From Nitrososphaerales archaeon (GTDB taxonomy: Archaea; Thermoproteota; Nitrososphaeria; Nitrososphaerales; UBA213), in the NCBI GenBank assembly GCA_965197925.1, contig CBDAOC010000019.1:352001-416000 (forward strand): 64,000 bases of DNA, written 5' to 3'. How positions within the stretch are numbered: the stretch's first letter is position 1; every line of letters begins with the position of its first letter. Below are positions 1,887 to 12,182 of this stretch, piece by piece. The notes under the pieces are model-generated. The model was not told where the DNA came from. It saw only the letters and a list, made by a program, of their open reading frames with translations, and made no database searches. The position numbers were made by a program, and so were the translations under genes.

Positions 1887-3221
1887 CTAATACCTTGGCC
1901 TACGAAAATATCGTCTGGCACGCTTTCCAATGACACCTTTCGTGACCTTAAATGTCTCCAAACCAGGTATTATTACCCTTACAACCGGGATTCCGATTTC
2001 CTCATCCGTTAAGTTAACTACAACTGCTCTGTCAACTCCAATTTCCTTAAGGTTACGGAGTAGCAGTTGTATATCATCAAGAATGTCAATATTTTCGAAT
2101 GTTCTCACCATATGAAAATTTTCCCTTTTCGAAGAAGGCATGAAAAGCCATGATTTAGTTTCTGCTGTATTACCCATTTCATAATTCATTCTACGAAGAT
2201 CATCCCGGGCTCCTTGGATATTAGCAGCCCTGGTCTGCGAAACTTCTGTTATTGCCCTTACTAATGCAATTCTTGCATCAGGATGTGTACCATGCCCTTC
2301 AGCCAAGTAGCCATAATCATGTGTAATCCATTGCACGCTTGTAGCGATAAAAGTTGGTATACCAATATCAGTTGTTATATCCTTAAGCAACAGAGGGATA
2401 TTTTCATCTAAGAACCTGCGTAATAATAATTCAATGTGGTTTGAATCTGTTCCAGAAGTATCAATGTCGGGAAAAATATTTGGATCGTCGACATATTCTT
2501 TTGATTCCAGTGGTTTTACATTGAAGCCATTATACTTGACTGAATCAATTAGGGAGCGTAAAACATGAAAATTAATTACGCTTGATCTAAGTTCGGCCAA
2601 GCTGACCGCGTCTCTCTCTATTACTTCACATAAGGCATGGCATATAGCCTCCTCCATAACATTACCAGATGCTAAACCATTGGTGTGAGAGAACTGGAAG
2701 GGATTAACGGGAATACCCCAAGGTTCATATCTTGATTGGCTAATACCTGCAGGAACAAAGACTTTCTCAGCCGTAAATAAATCCATACCTACCATGAAAT
2801 CTAGAGGGGAATCATCAACATAAGGAAACTTTAACGGCTCAAGCACATCATCTGGATGTATAACATATTTATTTCCATATTCTTTTGCCATGCTCTCATA
2901 GCTTTCAGTGATGTACCTATCGGTTTTCCTTGGTAGTGAACTATACCTCTCAACACTCTCCATTAATGCGCTTGTTTTTGCATGTGATTTAGTTGGCCCT
3001 TTACCGCTGTAAACCCAAATGTAATCCTGAGTACCAGGCAAAACTGCTGAATAATTCGGAATTCTTAGAACATCCATATGTGTAATATCAGCCAACCTTG
3101 TCACCCCAATTTTCTTACCAATTTGTTCTGCATGTGATAGCGTATCTTTTATTGGATATACTCTTGAGGAACCATCTGCCCACTTTCTTCTACTCTGAAG
3201 CTGTATAATGCCTCTTGACAT
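1887..3221 (-). CDS. ycaO: YcaO-family ATP-dependent backbone amide-activating enzyme, TfuA-associated
   Basis: GVTRLADIT, SGKG..SALMESVER, TNGLASGN..ALCEVIERDA, RAITEVSQTR and IPVVRVIIPGLE motifs. No C-terminal PxPxP. Directly upstream of tfuA. Confidence 0.93.
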   Translation of the reverse strand: MSRGIIQLQSRRKWADGSSRVYPIKDTLSHAEQIGKKIGVTRLADITHMDVLRIPNYSAVLPGTQDYIWVYSGKGPTKSHAKTSALMESVERYSSLPRKTDRYITESYESMAKEYGNKYVIHPDDVLEPLKFPYVDDSPLDFMVGMDLFTAEKVFVPAGISQSRYEPWGIPVNPFQFSHTNGLASGNVMEEAICHALCEVIERDAVSLAELRSSVINFHVLRSLIDSVKYNGFNVKPLESKEYVDDPNIFPDIDTSGTDSNHIELLLRRFLDENIPLLLKDITTDIGIPTFIATSVQWITHDYGYLAEGHGTHPDARIALVRAITEVSQTRAANIQGARDDLRRMNYEMGNTAETKSWLFMPSSKRENFHMVRTFENIDILDDIQLLLRNLKEIGVDRAVVVNLTDEEIGIPVVRVIIPGLETFKVTKGVIGKRARRYFRRPRY

Positions 3222-3307
3222 GAATTTTATTTTTTTGATGGTTATTAATGTCTATACAAAATACAAAATAATTAATAAGAATAAAAACCAGTTGATCAGA
3301 GATCCTT

Positions 3308-3481
3308 TTGGATAAGAATGAAACAGAGGTTCTGAATTCAATTTTTACTAAGATGGCGAAAGATCCTGAATTTAGGAACAAATTATTCAATGAACCATTG
3401 GAAGTTCTTGCAAAATTCGAAATATCTGAAAAGGCAAAAAACCTAATAGCGGATACCATCAATAATATTCTTAACCAATGA
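3308..3481 (+). CDS. 57-aa NHLP-leader-like peptide (not in ORF track)
   Basis: TTG start, MDKNETEVLNSIFTKMAKDPEFRNKLFNEPLEVLAKFEISEKAKNLIADTINNILNQ*. DPEFRxxLxxxPxxxL resembles nitrile-hydratase-like leader peptides. Divergent from ycaO. Confidence 0.7.
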   Translation: MDKNETEVLNSIFTKMAKDPEFRNKLFNEPLEVLAKFEISEKAKNLIADTINNILNQ

Positions 3482-3701: not shown

Positions 3702-4778
3702 TCAGGAATGACTTTCCTTGAAATAGGGAATGACTTCGTTTCCGAATAGTTCAATATGCTTATAGTAACCGCTTCCCCAAAATCTTATAATAAAATGCTT
3801 TACCCCTGCTTTTATGAATCGCTCGAATATAGGTATAATATCATCAGGTTTGCCCACTGCTATAGCTGATCGTGCGACCTCATCCGGGATGATTTGAGCT
3901 TCTTCTCTCATTTTAATCATAATATCTTTTTTTGACATTGAATACTCCGTAAAGTACTTTCGAAAATCAAATTCAGCTTTAGCTTCAATATTATGAATTT
4001 TTAGGACTTCTGGCTTGTACAAGCTAACTTTAAGGGGATTTTTCAATCTTGGCCATGCCTCTTCTGGGTCATCAGAAAAGTACACATCAATATCTAGACC
4101 AAAGTCTATCTTCTCCGGATCACGCCCAGCCTCTTTTGCAGCATTGGTAATAATCTGTGCATGATGCTCGTACAGTTCCGGTGTATACGCTATCGGTAAC
4201 CAACCATCACCAAACTTTCCTACTAATGAAAGTGTTCTAGGAGCACCGGCCGCCAAATACATAGGAGGTTTAGGATTTCTTATTGATTTGGTTTGTAGAC
4301 AGGCATTATTCAACTTGTAAAACTTTCCGTTGAAACTCACCCTGTTATCAGGAGACGAATTGAAAAGCAATGAGATTATTTGTAATTGTTCCTCAAAACG
4401 ACCTACAGGTTTATCCCACAATATACCAAAGTCATTTATGTTCTGTGCCTCACCAGCACCAATACCAAGTATTGCTCGTCCTTGAGATAATCTATCAAGG
4501 GTAATAGTCTGTAACGCCACGGTAGAGGGATGTCTTCTTACCGCATCCGTAACGCATGTTCCTAATTCAACATTTTTTGTAACCTGAGAAACTACAGAAA
4601 GAAATATCCATGCATCATTTATTATAGCCTTAGACCATTGAGGAACATTAGTATGGTCCATTATCCAGACTGAATCATAGTTCATTTTGTCAGCAAGTAT
4701 ACATGCTGTTAGCTGCTGGTCTTCATTAAGCCCTAACCTAGCAACATTCAGTCCTTGTTGAACCCCAAATTTGACCAT
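3702..4778 (-). CDS. LLM-class (luciferase-like, probably F420-dependent) oxidoreductase
   Basis: YDSVWIMDH, VELGTCVT..RRHP, TLDRLSQGRAILGIGAG and GDGWLP motifs. Confidence 0.88.
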   Translation of the reverse strand: MVKFGVQQGLNVARLGLNEDQQLTACILADKMNYDSVWIMDHTNVPQWSKAIINDAWIFLSVVSQVTKNVELGTCVTDAVRRHPSTVALQTITLDRLSQGRAILGIGAGEAQNINDFGILWDKPVGRFEEQLQIISLLFNSSPDNRVSFNGKFYKLNNACLQTKSIRNPKPPMYLAAGAPRTLSLVGKFGDGWLPIAYTPELYEHHAQIITNAAKEAGRDPEKIDFGLDIDVYFSDDPEEAWPRLKNPLKVSLYKPEVLKIHNIEAKAEFDFRKYFTEYSMSKKDIMIKMREEAQIIPDEVARSAIAVGKPDDIIPIFERFIKAGVKHFIIRFWGSGYYKHIELFGNEVIPYFKESHS

Positions 4779-4790
4779 GAGGGAGCTCCT

Positions 4791-5897
4791 CTATTTTGAT
4801 AATTGCCCACTCGGCGTTACTATTACCTTCATTCCCTTCCTACCCTTCACAACATCAATTGCTTGGTTTATTTCTTTGAGTGGGAATTGATGTGTGACCA
4901 TTTCCACAAAGGGATATTTCTCCCATTTCTTGGACATGAAGTTCACAAATTCATATTCATGTCTTGGTATTTTTGAATAGGAACCTATGATGGATATCTG
5001 TCTGCTGGTTATAAAGTAGGGATTTATCGGAGAAGGTCCATAATCTGCATAAGCACCAAGTTCAAGAACCCTGCCACCATCCCGAACCATATCTATGGCT
5101 TCCGGTAGCGCCTTTGGATTGCCAGTACAATCCATAACCACATCTGGGCCATGCCCTCCACTTGACTCCTTGATTTTTTTTACTCTTTCTTTTTGATCAC
5201 CAAGTGATTTGATATCAATAACTTCATCTGCACCCATTTTCTTTGCAAATTCCAACCTTTCTGCAGAGTCAATACCTATTACGTGCCTAGCACCTCTTTC
5301 TTTAGCCATAATTATTGCAAATGAACCTACAGGACCAGTTCCCTGTACAGCCACAACATCGTCAAAATCTATCCTAACGTTTTCAACTGCAGCTATTACC
5401 GTAGGACCGGCACAACCAACAGAGGCCAATGCTATGGTAGGCAAACTGTCAGGAAGTTTGAATGTTGTAACTTGAGGTGAGAGATAAATATATTCGGCAA
5501 AACCCCCCTCAAGATGAGGTGGTTTATCGGATGGTGTACTCAAACCTATTGCTTTTCTATTTATGCACCTTGTTCTCGTTCCTTTCATACAGTAAAAACA
5601 TCGACCACATGTTATACCCAAAGCCCAGTATATCCTATCCCCCTCTTTAATTGGATTACCAACACTGTCAGTCGTAACACCCTCACCGAGTCTTTCAACG
5701 ATGCCAACGCTTTCATGCCCCAATATTATCGGCACCGGTACCCATGGTACCTTTCCAGAAACTACATGAACATCTGTTCCGCAAATACCTGCACTAATTA
5801 TCTTTGCAAGTATAGCACCTTCTTTTGGTTCAGGTTTGGGAAATTCTTTTAATTCTAATGGCTCATCATTTTTATTGAAGACTGCCGCAAGCACCAT
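4791..5897 (-). CDS. Zinc-dependent alcohol dehydrogenase (MDR family)
   Basis: GICGTDVH, GHE, structural Zn CGRCFYC..C and GTGPVG Rossmann motif. Confidence 0.92.
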   Translation of the reverse strand: MVLAAVFNKNDEPLELKEFPKPEPKEGAILAKIISAGICGTDVHVVSGKVPWVPVPIILGHESVGIVERLGEGVTTDSVGNPIKEGDRIYWALGITCGRCFYCMKGTRTRCINRKAIGLSTPSDKPPHLEGGFAEYIYLSPQVTTFKLPDSLPTIALASVGCAGPTVIAAVENVRIDFDDVVAVQGTGPVGSFAIIMAKERGARHVIGIDSAERLEFAKKMGADEVIDIKSLGDQKERVKKIKESSGGHGPDVVMDCTGNPKALPEAIDMVRDGGRVLELGAYADYGPSPINPYFITSRQISIIGSYSKIPRHEYEFVNFMSKKWEKYPFVEMVTHQFPLKEINQAIDVVKGRKGMKVIVTPSGQLSK

Positions 5898-6002: not shown

Positions 6003-6677
6003 ATGGTAAAGATATTCTTGTTCATAATGCAAAGAAAAAGTGAGATTATGGTTAAACAGACCTGTCTTCAAGACATTGATGCCATAGTGGCGTTACAGAA
6101 AGAATCCTTCCCAGGCCTTAGCGAGATAGGTGTTGTCTGGAGACCAGAACATTTGCAAAGACAAATCCAAATATTCCCAGAAGGACAGCATTGTGTAATC
6201 TATAATGGGGAAACTGTAGGTTCAGCAAGCAGTTTAATTGTGGATTTAGGAGATGACCAATATAGGTACCATACTTGGAAGGAGGTCACCGGGGATAGTT
6301 TCTTTGACAATCACAATGCAAAAGGTGATAGTCTGTATAGAGCTGACATTTCTGTGCATCCAAAGTATCGAAGACTAAATATCGCTACTAGGATGTATCA
6401 AGCAAGAAAAGCGCTTGCAAAAAAACTGAACTTAAGAAGGATCATTGCAGGTGGAAAACTCTACAATTACTGTGAATACACTTCTGAAATGTCTGCTGAT
6501 GAGTATACACTCAAAGTTTTGAAAGGCGAGATCTCAGATCCTGTGTTGTGCTTCCAGTTGAAAGCCGGTTTCAAAGTGATCAAATTATTACCCAACTACT
6601 TGCGTGATCCACGGTCCTTAAATTTTGCTACATTTATAGAATGGATAAATCCGGATTATAAAATGAAAACAAGATGA
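6003..6677 (+). CDS. GNAT-family N-acetyltransferase (start may be 6027)
   Basis: ISVHPKYRRLNIA acetyl-CoA motif, DPVLxFQL..GF and LPNYL.D..S motifs typical of GNATs paired with CN hydrolases. Confidence 0.85.
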   Translation: MVKIFLFIMQRKSEIMVKQTCLQDIDAIVALQKESFPGLSEIGVVWRPEHLQRQIQIFPEGQHCVIYNGETVGSASSLIVDLGDDQYRYHTWKEVTGDSFFDNHNAKGDSLYRADISVHPKYRRLNIATRMYQARKALAKKLNLRRIIAGGKLYNYCEYTSEMSADEYTLKVLKGEISDPVLCFQLKAGFKVIKLLPNYLRDPRSLNFATFIEWINPDYKMKTR

Positions 6678-7556
6678 ATAGTAAATCAATTAGAGTTGCA
6701 TTGGTTCAGTATGGAATGCGGAAAATCAGTAATTTTGGAGAATTCTCAATCCAGGTAGAGTATTTCGTTTCAACGGCAAAAGATTACAAGGCTGATTATG
6801 TTATTTTTCCAGAGCTTTTAACTCAACAGCTTTTATCCTTTATAAGAGCAAAAGATCCTCAAGTTGCAATACGACGTGTTGCCAGTTATACAAGAGATTA
6901 TATCCAAACATTCAAAAGATTGGCGAAGGAGTACAAGTTATTCGTTATTGGAGGTTCCCACCCGACCCCAGTAAATGGGGGACCACAATACATCATATCT
7001 GTTTACGCCTTCTGGCAAATATTACAGACAAGATAAGATGCATATTACTCCTGACGAGCGGATTTGGTAGGGGTTCAAAGGAGGTAATTCCTTCAATATC
7101 TTTGATACGGGAAAGGCAAAGATCGCCATATCGATCTGTTATGATATTGAATTTCCTGAAATTGCCAGGATATTGAGCTCTAGGGGAGTTCAAGCTATAT
7201 TTGTTCCCTTTATGACCGATGAGAGAAAGGCCTATCTACGCATTAGATATTGTGCACATGCGCGAGCAATAGAAAACCAGATTTATGTCGCGATGGCTGG
7301 CACGGTCGGTAATTTACCACATTCTGAACATATGGATTTACAATATGCGCAGTCTGCAGTGGTTACCCCATCAGACTTTCCATTTGCGAGGGACGGGGTT
7401 GCCGCTGAGGCTAGCCTAAATACAGAAACGATGGTTGTTTGCGATCTTGATTTGGGACTTCTGCAAAAAGCCAGAAACAATGGTACAGTTACTCAAATGA
7501 AAGATCTCAGGCGAGATCTATACAATCTTTCAATAAATGCAATAAACTGCAATTGA
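6674..7556 (+). pseudogene. Carbon-nitrogen hydrolase (nitrilase family), disrupted
   Basis: IFPE, K(MH) and ICYDIEFPE triad motifs are spread over two frames. Frameshift near 6975-6990 and in-frame TAG at 7068-7070. Confidence 0.85.
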
Positions 7557-9390: not shown

Positions 9391-10396
9391 GAGCCTATCC
9401 TAAAATTCTAGCTGATAGTTAATGATTGGTAGAAATAATATCATTTAGAATGCAAGAATATTAGTTCAAACTGTCAGGTTTAGTTTTCTTACTATTGATT
9501 TTATTAGTATTGTAGATAGTAGATACTAGAAACAGTTGCATTAACGTGTTTATGACACTACCAATATATCGCTCTATACACTATTAGGCAGTTAGCAAAT
9601 TCTACTAGCGCCTGATAATTTTCCTCTCTCTTCTCGAACCTTACCAATAACTTTCTGAACCTGTTATGCCAAGATGCGGTTCTTTCTACAACCCATCTCT
9701 TTGCTTTGTACAAATTCTTTTTCAATACTTCACCCTTATGACGAATGTGATCCACATATCCCCTTCCTAACTCCATATTTCATACTCCATACTCTATCTC
9801 AGGGAAATCATATCCCTTATCTATGCATATGTTCTGTTTAACTTTGGGCCTATCAACAACAATGCTACCTAATGCAGGAAAGGCTGATTTCATATCGTGT
9901 TTATTTGCTTCAGTAACTTGGATGAGGGAGGTACTCCTCTTCTATCAACCGGCATGTGACGTTTGGTACCTAGCTTGCCCTGTCCGTTGGGTTTGCTCCG
10001 GTCGTTTTCCCCCTAATGGACCCTTCAGTAACGCTATCCATGGATTGCCAGTCCCATCCCATGCTCTTCAATTCATCACATATTTCCAGCAGCCTCTTCC
10101 ATGCCTTCCCGAATACTCCCATGCCAACCCATTCCTGAAATCTTGCATGGCAAGTTGAGCCAGAACCAAATTCTTTCGGCACCTTCTTCCACTGGCATCC
10201 GGTTCTTAATACGTACAGTATTCCATTCAACACTTTTCTAAATGGCACAGCCGGTCTTCCAACTGTTCTTGCTGGTTTCTCTGGTGGCAACACTAGTTTG
10301 AACTCTACCTATAGATCATTTGGTATATGCCATATGGTCGACATGCTCTTTTTCTTTGATTTTCTCACAAATTTAGCTAGAGAGGACAGATCTAGA
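9391..10396 (-). mobile_element. IS5-family element type A, degraded copy lacking one terminal repeat
   Basis: Starts GAGCCTATCCTAAAATT and is near-identical to 20278-21324. Transposase fragments LRTGCQW and RWVVER with frameshifts. Homology stops after AGATCTAGA at 10396. Confidence 0.88.
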
Positions 10397-10536
10397 ATTT
10401 TCAAGAATAATGTAAAACATCATGGAATTAAATTTAATTGCCGATGTTATTGGTAATATCCCACCATGAAAATAATGATTTAAATTATATCCCCATGATG
10501 AAAAAATAATGAATAAACTAACAATACCTAGTATAT

Positions 10537-11436
10537 TCAACTCATCTCAAAACCCTACAATACATCAAAAATGATGCAAGATTAACAAATGCCAGGTAGT
10601 TTTCTGCCGTTCTTTCATATCTGATTCTTGTTCTGTGAAATCCATTCTTGAGCCATGCAAGGAATCTCTCAACTACAAATCTTGTCTTGCTGTAATGTTT
10701 GCAATCATTATTTTGCAAGATGAACTTGGAATTTATTTTGTATGGGATGCAACATGCAATATTTCTATCCCACAAATACATTCTGATGTATTTTGCATCA
10801 TTTTGTCTGCATAAACTGGTTCTATCTGTTGTATTGAATCATCATCAAGATAGTCTGAAATTGATCCTGTAACATCCATGCATTTTGTACTGTCATGTTC
10901 ATTTGCTGGACTCAACAGTATGGATATTGGAAATCCGTTACCCTCTACTGCGGCATGTATTTTTGTACCTGTTATTCTCTTGAATCCATTATATCCAGTT
11001 ACATTGCCCCTTTTTTATCAGGAATGGATGAAGAGTCAACTGATATTTTTTGTAGATTAATTTTGCCAGATTTATGTGCTGAGTGAATAGTACGTGATAG
11101 AATCTTTTTCCAGATTCCTTTTTGTTGCCATTTGTTTAACCTTCTGTTTGCAGATTTGTTTAACCTTCTGTTTGCAGTAGAATCATCACCATATCTTTTT
11201 GGCATATCGTCCCATCGGCATCCAGTAGTTAGAACATGGATTATTCCGTTAATGATTTTTCTATCATCATCCCTAGGCCTGCCAGTTTTTGCATGTGGTG
11301 GTATGTGTGATTCCATCATACTCCACTGTTTGTCTGATAATTCTTGGAATTTCATAAAATAATTTTAGATGTCGCTATTCATGGATCTAAATGGTCGCTA
11401 AAAATTGTCTAAATGGTTAGTTTTGAGGTGAGTTGA
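10537..11436 (-). mobile_element. IS5-family element type B, degraded
   Basis: 17-bp TIRs TCAACTCATCTCAAAAC / GTTTTGAGGTGAGTTGA. Transposase pieces TGCRWDDMP, YADK and RFVVER. 24-bp internal duplication near 11131-11177. Confidence 0.9.
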
Positions 11437-11963: not shown

Positions 11964-12182
11964 ATGTCTCTTTGGTTGTACGTTACTGTGGGACTATTGG
12001 TTTTGATAGCTATTATCGTAGTCATGAAAGCTGATTCCAATCCAATGAGAAGTTTTAAACATAAAACTGAACTGATTACCAATGTAACATACATTTGCTC
12101 CCATTGTGGTAATTCTTTCAAAGGGGCCAAATGTCCAACTTGTGGCTCTAACAATTGGCGAGGAGAGATTGGTAGCATATAA
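11964..12182 (+). CDS. Small membrane-anchored zinc-ribbon protein
   Basis: N-terminal hydrophobic helix followed by CSHC...CPTC. Confidence 0.7.
   Translation: MSLWLYVTVGLLVLIAIIVVMKADSNPMRSFKHKTELITNVTYICSHCGNSFKGAKCPTCGSNNWRGEIGSI

Follow-up and report, generated by a model that had tools for sequence, protein, structure and literature searches.

What does a leader-like peptide do when it has no core to lead? This question is raised by the window (the whole stretch of 64,000 nucleotides analysed here, from a Nitrososphaerales archaeon), in which a small gene on the plus strand (3308–3481) encodes a 57-aa four-helix mini-protein, here called S, and lies head-to-head with the minus-strand genes for a stand-alone YcaO (444 aa; 1887–3221) and, directly after it, a TfuA protein (1196–1936). 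The initial annotation had described S as an unannotated NHLP-leader-like peptide, and proposed either that the whole mini-protein is the modified product or that it acts in trans as an activator or adaptor for YcaO on separately encoded substrates. Our preferred reading, to which we give a probability of roughly 45%, is that S is a dedicated non-catalytic partner (a small subunit or a leader-in-trans) of a protein-thioamidating YcaO.

S is a conserved gene

S is a real, conserved, core-less mini-protein that is transcribed in two relatives. Direct translation of 3308–3481 gives a TTG start, 57 codons and a TGA stop, and the product, which includes DPEFRNKLFNEP, contains no Gly and no Cys. Homologues with E-values from 7.8e-19 to 4.3e-6 were found in 16 of 60 relatives (17 of 61 with the genome itself, in three families of the order), and the 17-sequence S profile matched 711 proteins at E ≤ 0.001, the source labels of which were hypothetical proteins of Nitrosocaldus, Nitrososphaera, Nitrosocosmicus and Nitrosopolaris. 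In the five least-diverged pairs, dN/dS was about 0.09, 0.14, 0.14, 0.28 and 0.06 (0.06–0.15 in four of the five); across all 78 scorable pairs the estimates were noisy (median 0.40, maximum 0.92), and we ascribe the high values to saturation over about 55 codons. Translation, homologues and codon-level conservation thereby support the 57-residue frame as a gene. The epithet "unannotated" holds for its function (relatives carry the label "hypothetical protein", e.g., NTE_01566), but not for the gene call, because an identical 57-aa protein (P0013) had already been called in the protein collection. Similarly, the absence of Gly and Cys is a property of the window protein and not of the family: among the best 120 of the 711 homologues, Gly occurred in 16 and Cys in four after the motif (DPEFRxxLxxxP in the window).

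The chosen start codon was TTG at 18 of 28 loci, ATG at nine and GTG at one; in one genome (G005), an ATG three codons downstream of the chosen start was a better fit. Since a TTG start leads to miscalls, many over-long versions of S are present in databases, and the four longer matches among 7999 scored candidates were all N-terminal over-extensions. No S–YcaO fusion was found among the same candidates, which is weak evidence. An antisense ORF (3190–3462) was dismissed as a shadow, as it had no family match and was present at 7 of 40 loci.

No homologue examined carries a core

In 119 of the best 120 of the 711 homologues, S ended 36–40 residues after the start of the motif, and GG followed the motif in none of the 120. 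The observation that S has neither a double-glycine site nor a core is therefore true of every homologue examined. The stop codons varied (13 TAG, 8 TAA and 7 TGA at 28 loci), and no readthrough or shifted-frame extension was conserved downstream in any frame at these loci. A core hidden in a nearby small ORF was considered and rejected: the nine cross-family matches among 1,471 short frames all came from a common downstream gene. The initial annotation had also suggested looking through the genome for paralogues that carry cores. None was found in the genome itself, where the next match to S among 60,418 frames had E ≥ 0.76, and elsewhere there was a single match per genome (52 of 301 class genomes, counted before a weak match in G133, with E 2.8e-4 and lying inside a 1001-aa frame, was dropped).

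S resembles the binding half of precursor peptides

The window S scored 16.6 bits against the NHLP model TIGR03793 (cut-off, 50.9) and 16.7 bits against the Os1348 model NF038399 (cut-off, 40), and had no Pfam match. At E ≤ 1, TIGR03793 was matched by all 17 family members (best 8.6e-5), NF038399 by 16 (best 1.5e-7) and PF14407 by 11 (best 9.6e-5); no Nif11 family was among the NCBIfam or Pfam matches of the 17. The S profile, for its part, recovered nitrile hydratase alpha chains, and gave weak matches to the NHLP structures 9cjx and 8tb1. The S model consists of four helices (pLDDT 87.6); compared with 48,161 chains, it matched a fungal borosin best (Z 5.5), followed by SonA (Z 5.3, with rmsd 1.4 over 43 residues), then LigA (Z 5.2) and DesB (Z 4.9). 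Z values of 5.3–5.5 are below the decisive level of the tool for helical bundles, and their weight comes from agreement with the sequence matches. Foldseek gave no match at E ≤ 0.001, and every ESM Atlas match of S was below 0.9.

Comparison with the known systems defines what S shares with each of them. NHLP (proteusin) leaders (TIGR03793; PDB 8tb1 and 9cjx; the MprE–MprC and DprE–DprM systems) resemble S in their N-terminal helical bundle, which carries the DPxFR motif (8tb1 aligns at rmsd 1.4 over 40 columns, with E 1.6), but S matches only positions 3–33 of the 77 in the profile and has no β-strands, GG or core. In addition, the host YcaO, unlike the enzymes of NHLP systems, has no fused RRE or E1 domain by Pfam. 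It also lacks what we take to be the C-terminal PxP motif. The closest profiles are Os1348 (NF038399; PDB 6lk7) and Franean1_4349 (PF14407). The profile match between S and Os1348/Frankia-type proteins was 99.1% over 47 columns, a value that is partly circular since these proteins were picked from the matches. They run 20–50 residues beyond the end of S, and the neighbours of Os1348 are other enzymes. Because these relatives align over 47 columns and then continue, S therefore appears to work like the binding half of NHLP/Os1348-type precursors while being a member of neither family by their own criteria. What stands of the "NHLP-leader-like" description is a weak profile kinship within a wider NHLP/Os1348/LigA/borosin-binding bundle; S is not an NHLP proper, as the second half of the leader is absent. 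Eight proteins (P0149, P0171, P0179, P0180, P0185, P0191, P0212 and P0218) form a separate 71–73-aa Os1348/Frankia-like family with a variable middle and a conserved C-terminal [NS]DIR[ILY] end.

The SonA/borosin-binding domain (PDB 9cgw and 7ltr; fungal 7twm) is of the same size as S, does not depend on GG or Cys, and wraps a protruding element of its enzyme. The 55-residue SonA domain alone binds SonM in this way, around a protruding loop, with a Ki of 3.9 µM, and homologous bundles cap dioxygenases (PMC8429565). S differs in having no linker or core, and its partner would be a YcaO instead of a methyltransferase: at 40 loci, no α-N-methyltransferase was found beside S, the only conserved neighbours being ycaO and tfuA, and there was no C-terminal core. 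LigA of the LigAB dioxygenases (PF07746; PDB 1b4u) has the same bundle as a separate, non-catalytic enzyme cap, but no ligB was present beside S at the 40 loci, and PF07746 was matched by two of the 17 S members. LigA-type small subunits were observed in other Thermoproteota (L059:1456–1749, L060:583–1746 and L062:1357–2488), with an adjoining LigB dioxygenase confirmed in L060 and a similar gene in L062. Four weak S matches in the phylum scan, three of them LigA-type and one in an unrelated frame, were dropped before counting. A contig scan with P0151 yielded two matches to Clostridia-type loci that are due to chance.

The ycaO–tfuA locus

The window YcaO matched PF02624 (E 1.3e-71) and TfuA matched PF07812 (E 1e-36). 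The best structural match of the YcaO model was the methanogen enzyme (MJ1094; PDB 6pe3 and 6peu), which belongs to the YcaO–TfuA system for McrA thioglycine (TIGR03266/NF033432) and shows the same arrangement of a stand-alone YcaO followed by TfuA; the comparison with 6peu gave Z 47.5 and rmsd 2.1 over 370 aligned residues. YcaO homologues of ammonia oxidisers have been placed in the methanogen clade (Nayak 2017, PMC5589413). Both window proteins are nevertheless under the equivalog cut-offs of the methanogen system (277 bits against 365 for TIGR03266; 217 bits against 235.2 for NF033432). The host genome (98.7% complete), which carries archaeal amoA, has no detectable MCR alpha (PF02249), whereas the control search was positive in two methanogens. 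Adjacent ycaO and tfuA genes with intact ATP-binding motifs are the criterion for a TfuA-associated thioamide-forming YcaO system, and this combination was found here: E88/E91/R92, N181–G182, E199/E202/R203/D204 and E326/Q329, which we take to be the ATP-binding motifs, were invariant in 28/28 genomes. The GTG at 1936 is the start of the TfuA frame, although an ATG at 1867 is closer to the homologue lengths.

One ThiS-family gene was found in the host genome by an end-motif screen, and its product, a ThiS/MoaD-family protein (PF02597) ending in GG (G000:C20:1045829–1046104; L068:1830–2105, minus strand), is a candidate sulfur carrier for TfuA. The adjoining gene presumably encodes MoaA. The 86-bp divergent intergenic region between ycaO and S (3222–3307) contains A/T-rich TATA-like boxes at 3242–3249 (toward ycaO) and 3270–3286 (toward S), the placement of which is consistent with leaderless transcripts. 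A TATA-like hexamer was present 24–36 nt upstream of the S start at 24 of 28 loci, against 9.1 expected from shuffles, the hexamer pattern, the interval and six start positions having been picked after viewing the data. A bacterial promoter scan, which is inapplicable to archaea, gave no match.

Beyond S, a luciferase-like (F420-type) oxidoreductase and a zinc alcohol dehydrogenase (3702–5897, minus strand) converge on it; they are not part of the module, because they occur near it at only 3 of 40 loci. Further along the window are an ORF that we assume to be acetyltransferase-like, followed by a gene, presumably for a carbon–nitrogen hydrolase, in two pieces (6674–7036 and 7173–7556) that is possibly frameshifted (6003–7556 as a whole, plus strand); several transposase-like fragments (9558–11355, minus strand), which we take to be IS5-like; and a 72-aa ORF (11964–12182, plus strand) with a hydrophobic N-terminal stretch and a CxxC–CxxC zinc-ribbon-like end.

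S is inherited together with YcaO

S was present in 51 of 301 class genomes and this YcaO in 53, and all 51 were among the 53. The two YcaO genomes without S were G008, where YcaO lies at a contig start, and G297, a 220-contig assembly. In the set of 61 relatives, YcaO and TfuA each occurred in 19 genomes, among them every one of the 17 that carry S, the exceptions being G008 (with YcaO cut by the contig start) and G051, which has a different YcaO and belongs to a family without amoA; its arm-less YcaO–TfuA pair (L037:7529–9435) occurs without S. S was single-copy in three amoA-bearing Nitrososphaerales families. Both S and this YcaO were absent from all 180 genomes of a further family (amoA in 4/4 tested), which we infer to be the Nitrosopumilaceae. 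By hand count, S was head-to-head with ycaO within 1.7 kb in 34 of the 51 genomes; in the other 17 (genera g60, g31 and g39) it was unlinked, yet single-copy. Only S, ycaO and tfuA were common to the families in the flanks of the 40 loci, and no protease, transporter or core-bearing precursor was shared among them, although there may be unlinked factors. A distant relative (the P0166 family, 28% identity) was also head-to-head with ycaO, at both of its two loci. A second, RiPP-type YcaO was observed in some genomes of family f15 (L054:687–3152 and L055:3244–5662), fused to ThiF in G240 and with similar weak matches in G292, G316 and G230; it possibly belongs to azole-peptide clusters in ammonia oxidisers.

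These data bear on the idea that S and YcaO are unconnected, in which case S would be either a co-inherited core gene (it might, for instance, cap some other enzyme in the way that LigA caps LigB) or a remnant of a RiPP cluster that has since been lost. The trees of S and YcaO look largely vertical (a quick tree in the case of S), so that co-occurrence within the same families is not independent, and the co-occurrence and the arm pattern described below may together represent one gain and one loss and not independent events. The 17 unlinked genomes, and the fact that the weak matches in other Thermoproteota are true LigA subunits, point in the same direction. On the other hand, three families whose flanks are unrelated keep the head-to-head linkage, as does the most distant relative tested; the complex model presented below passes both kinds of control; and a mere relic would not be expected to be transcribed or to be under purifying selection. 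We thus consider it highly doubtful that the two are unrelated, and regard the link as well supported by synteny, co-occurrence, the YcaO arm and the complex model.

A YcaO arm as the predicted binding site of S

The window YcaO carries an arm of about 35 residues that is absent from MJ1094. It lies at about residues 214–250 (2472–2582, minus strand) and consists, in the YcaO model, of an amphipathic helix (214–230) followed by a loop with YVDD. The spacing between D204 and K280, which spans the arm, was 76–78 residues in all 28 S-bearing genomes that were fetched in full, but 41–45 residues in 30 of 30 YcaOs without S (that of G051 and 29 others from Thermoproteota; 30 genomes were matched and 29 had loci). 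Thus, none of the Thermoproteota YcaOs examined from outside the S-bearing genomes had the arm or was accompanied by the small partner gene. The alignment with cyanobactin cyclodehydratases covers more YcaO residues than that with the methanogen enzyme (384–391 against 370), so that the cyclodehydratases may have extra structure near the arm.

The arm was written down as the candidate site for S before the complex was predicted. The predicted complex of YcaO, ATP, Mg and S scored 0.78, against 0.21 for the best control, and placed S on the arm. Of 157 solved pairs, 116 reach the mark for such scores, as do 2 of 215 mismatched pairs; because our own alignments and ligands were used, these counts are rough guides here. 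At least 80% of the contacts agreed between runs, and the pLDDT of the partner was at least 87. Confident contacts joined YcaO 217–248 and 439–441 with S 5–27 and 43–56, and none of them was at ATP-site residues; residues that are not named among the contacts are uncertain. Several contact residues are conserved (in YcaO, L221 in 27/28, D245 in 28/28 and D246 in 24/28; in S, P20 in 25/28 and R23 in 28/28). Since no solved methanogen YcaO structure contains the arm, there is limited scope for the model to have passed by reproducing known structures, although bundle-on-helix complexes (SonM–SonA, for example) have been solved. S and the arm showed no co-variation (partial r from −0.18 to 0.06 for segments starting at 206–238, with the rest of YcaO and TfuA removed), the highest value (0.41) being that of segment 110–133, and the excess conservation of S interface positions over the rest was not significant (p = 0.13). 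As a whole, the modelling makes it quite probable that S binds the YcaO arm.

Binding to the arm would also be expected if S were a regulator, a mimic of an ancestral precursor that in excess inhibits, stabilises or gates a YcaO whose catalysis is independent of S. Methanogen YcaOs are active, and being arm-less they work without S. Moreover, S is a separate transcription unit, unlinked in one third of its genomes (the 17 of 51 above), and in the SonM system a leader without a core is a competitive inhibitor (PMC8429565). However, the arm occurs only together with S, and the enzyme therefore seems to have gained a site for S, so that we regard a purely regulatory role as distinctly unlikely.

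Transcription of S, and S as a possible substrate

High transcript levels and an own divergent promoter are typical of precursors. In published RNA-seq data, the S homologue of Ca. Nitrosocosmicus franklandus (NFRAN_2334) was at 776/1158 TPM, compared with 74/121 for ycaO and 62/102 for tfuA, and NVIE_002450 of N. viennensis was at 275/464 TPM compared with 101/143 for ycaO, i.e., about 10-fold and about 3-fold excesses of S mRNA over ycaO mRNA, respectively (PMC12448741). NFRAN_2334 was equated with P0040 by consecutive accessions (P0040 is VFJ14656.1; the next, VFJ14657.1, is WP_134484800.1, i.e., NFRAN_2335), and NVIE_002450 was taken as a putative S homologue because the family table of that paper assigns it to the same family. 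This excess fits a substrate or an inhibitor better than a 1:1 subunit. In one contrast from that study, biofilm versus control, S and ycaO either moved together or stayed level (log2FC of −0.46 for S and −0.21 for ycaO in N. viennensis, and of 0.01 and −0.15, respectively, in N. franklandus), which gives no indication of opposite regulation and counts against a regulator.

The same excess, together with the divergent promoter of S, raises the question of whether S is itself the substrate. The bundle would dock on the arm as a structured leader, its C-terminal helix would unwind into the active site and be thioamidated, and the uncleaved mini-protein would be the product. SonA provides the precedent, beyond its fold likeness to S, since its helix 5 unwinds and feeds the core without any requirement for GG or Cys (PMC8429565). 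No other candidate substrate is conserved nearby, and the C-terminal residue is Gln in 94 of the best 120 of the 711 homologues, a count biased to one family. In a wider set, however, the last residue varies (Q, N, H, S, T, L, E, F, I, K and R), and the C-terminal extension of the P0166 family is unrelated. Furthermore, S ends where the binding domain of SonA (1–53) ends, with no linker or core; its last helix is amphipathic and within the predicted interface (43–56); and the model has no confident contact with ATP-site residues, with the reservation already made for unnamed residues. The YcaO segments 54–77 and 318–345 are nearly invariant, and this contrast with the varying C-terminus of S suggests that the substrate is more conserved than S. 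Modification of S itself is therefore a close rival of our preferred reading, albeit a somewhat unlikely one.

S as a proposed partner of a putative protein-thioamidating YcaO

We favour S as a non-catalytic partner for four reasons: nothing extends beyond the last helix of S, this helix forms part of the predicted interface, the C-terminal end of S is variable, and the closest match to the enzyme is the YcaO that modifies McrA. Against this stands the fact that the RiPP-enzyme binders with the predicted fold of S in the literature consulted (SonA and the NHLPs) are substrates. In the proposed mechanism, S would fold as a helical bundle the size of the borosin-binding domain, and its helix 1, helix 4 and AxxPxFR loop would together clamp the arm helix and the YVDD loop. 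TfuA would then supply sulfur from a ThiS-type carrier to S–YcaO, and this complex would introduce a backbone thioamide into a conserved cellular protein encoded by a separate gene, as happens with McrA and uL16. In known YcaO chemistry, the backbone amide is phosphorylated and its oxygen is exchanged for sulfide, which TfuA and a ThiS-type carrier deliver (PMC8120280, PMC13063428). By analogy with its family, the window YcaO is thus a presumed thioamide-forming enzyme, and S would be its activator or adaptor on a separate target. For two NHLP enzymes, related contacts have been modelled: helix 1 of the leader touches the enzyme in a model of MprC, and in a model of DprM an additional helix is inserted into the bundle.

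A cellular protein is a more likely target than a peptide natural product, because no protease, transporter, paralogue or core is conserved and the best match to this YcaO is with the methanogen enzymes that modify proteins; for the same reasons, the "RiPP architecture" suggested in the initial annotation is doubtful. E. coli YcaO, which acts on uL16, likewise modifies a cellular protein, but it is a different, longer YcaO (Z 25) and works without TfuA. The authors of the uL16 study count only two characterised protein thioamides and expect more protein substrates (PMC13063428). Our own search found no target protein. The scan employed a motif that we assumed to be McrA-like, and its sole relaxed match, anthranilate phosphoribosyltransferase, was discarded, as 0.44 matches were expected by chance.

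No description of S was found in the literature searched on YcaO/TfuA, thioamidation and RiPPs in ammonia-oxidising archaea, a search that left subscription papers mostly outside. Eight thaumarchaeal TfuA clusters have been reported (Malit 2021); the text of its supplement, which includes a figure legend on Nitrosocosmicus clusters, contains neither of two S motifs, while the precursor table and figures of that study could list S.

Implications

YcaO–TfuA has been known in ammonia-oxidising archaea since 2017 without a substrate, as there is no MCR in these organisms. There is now a specific three-protein set (S, YcaO and TfuA) with a named predicted interface that can be tested. We put forward, tentatively, that a structured leader of the RiPP type was recruited as a stand-alone subunit which a protein-thioamidating YcaO requires and holds with a purpose-built arm, and that in three families of ammonia oxidisers the complex modifies some housekeeping or energy-metabolism protein. 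This would be a natural leader in trans and, following McrA and uL16, a third example of protein thioamidation, in which a precursor-type fold has been reused as an enzyme subunit. If S gains sulfur, it would be a rare thioamidated mini-protein; otherwise, it would serve as bait for the real target. In either case, the S/YcaO trait separates three families of ammonia oxidisers from a fourth (0/180 genomes).
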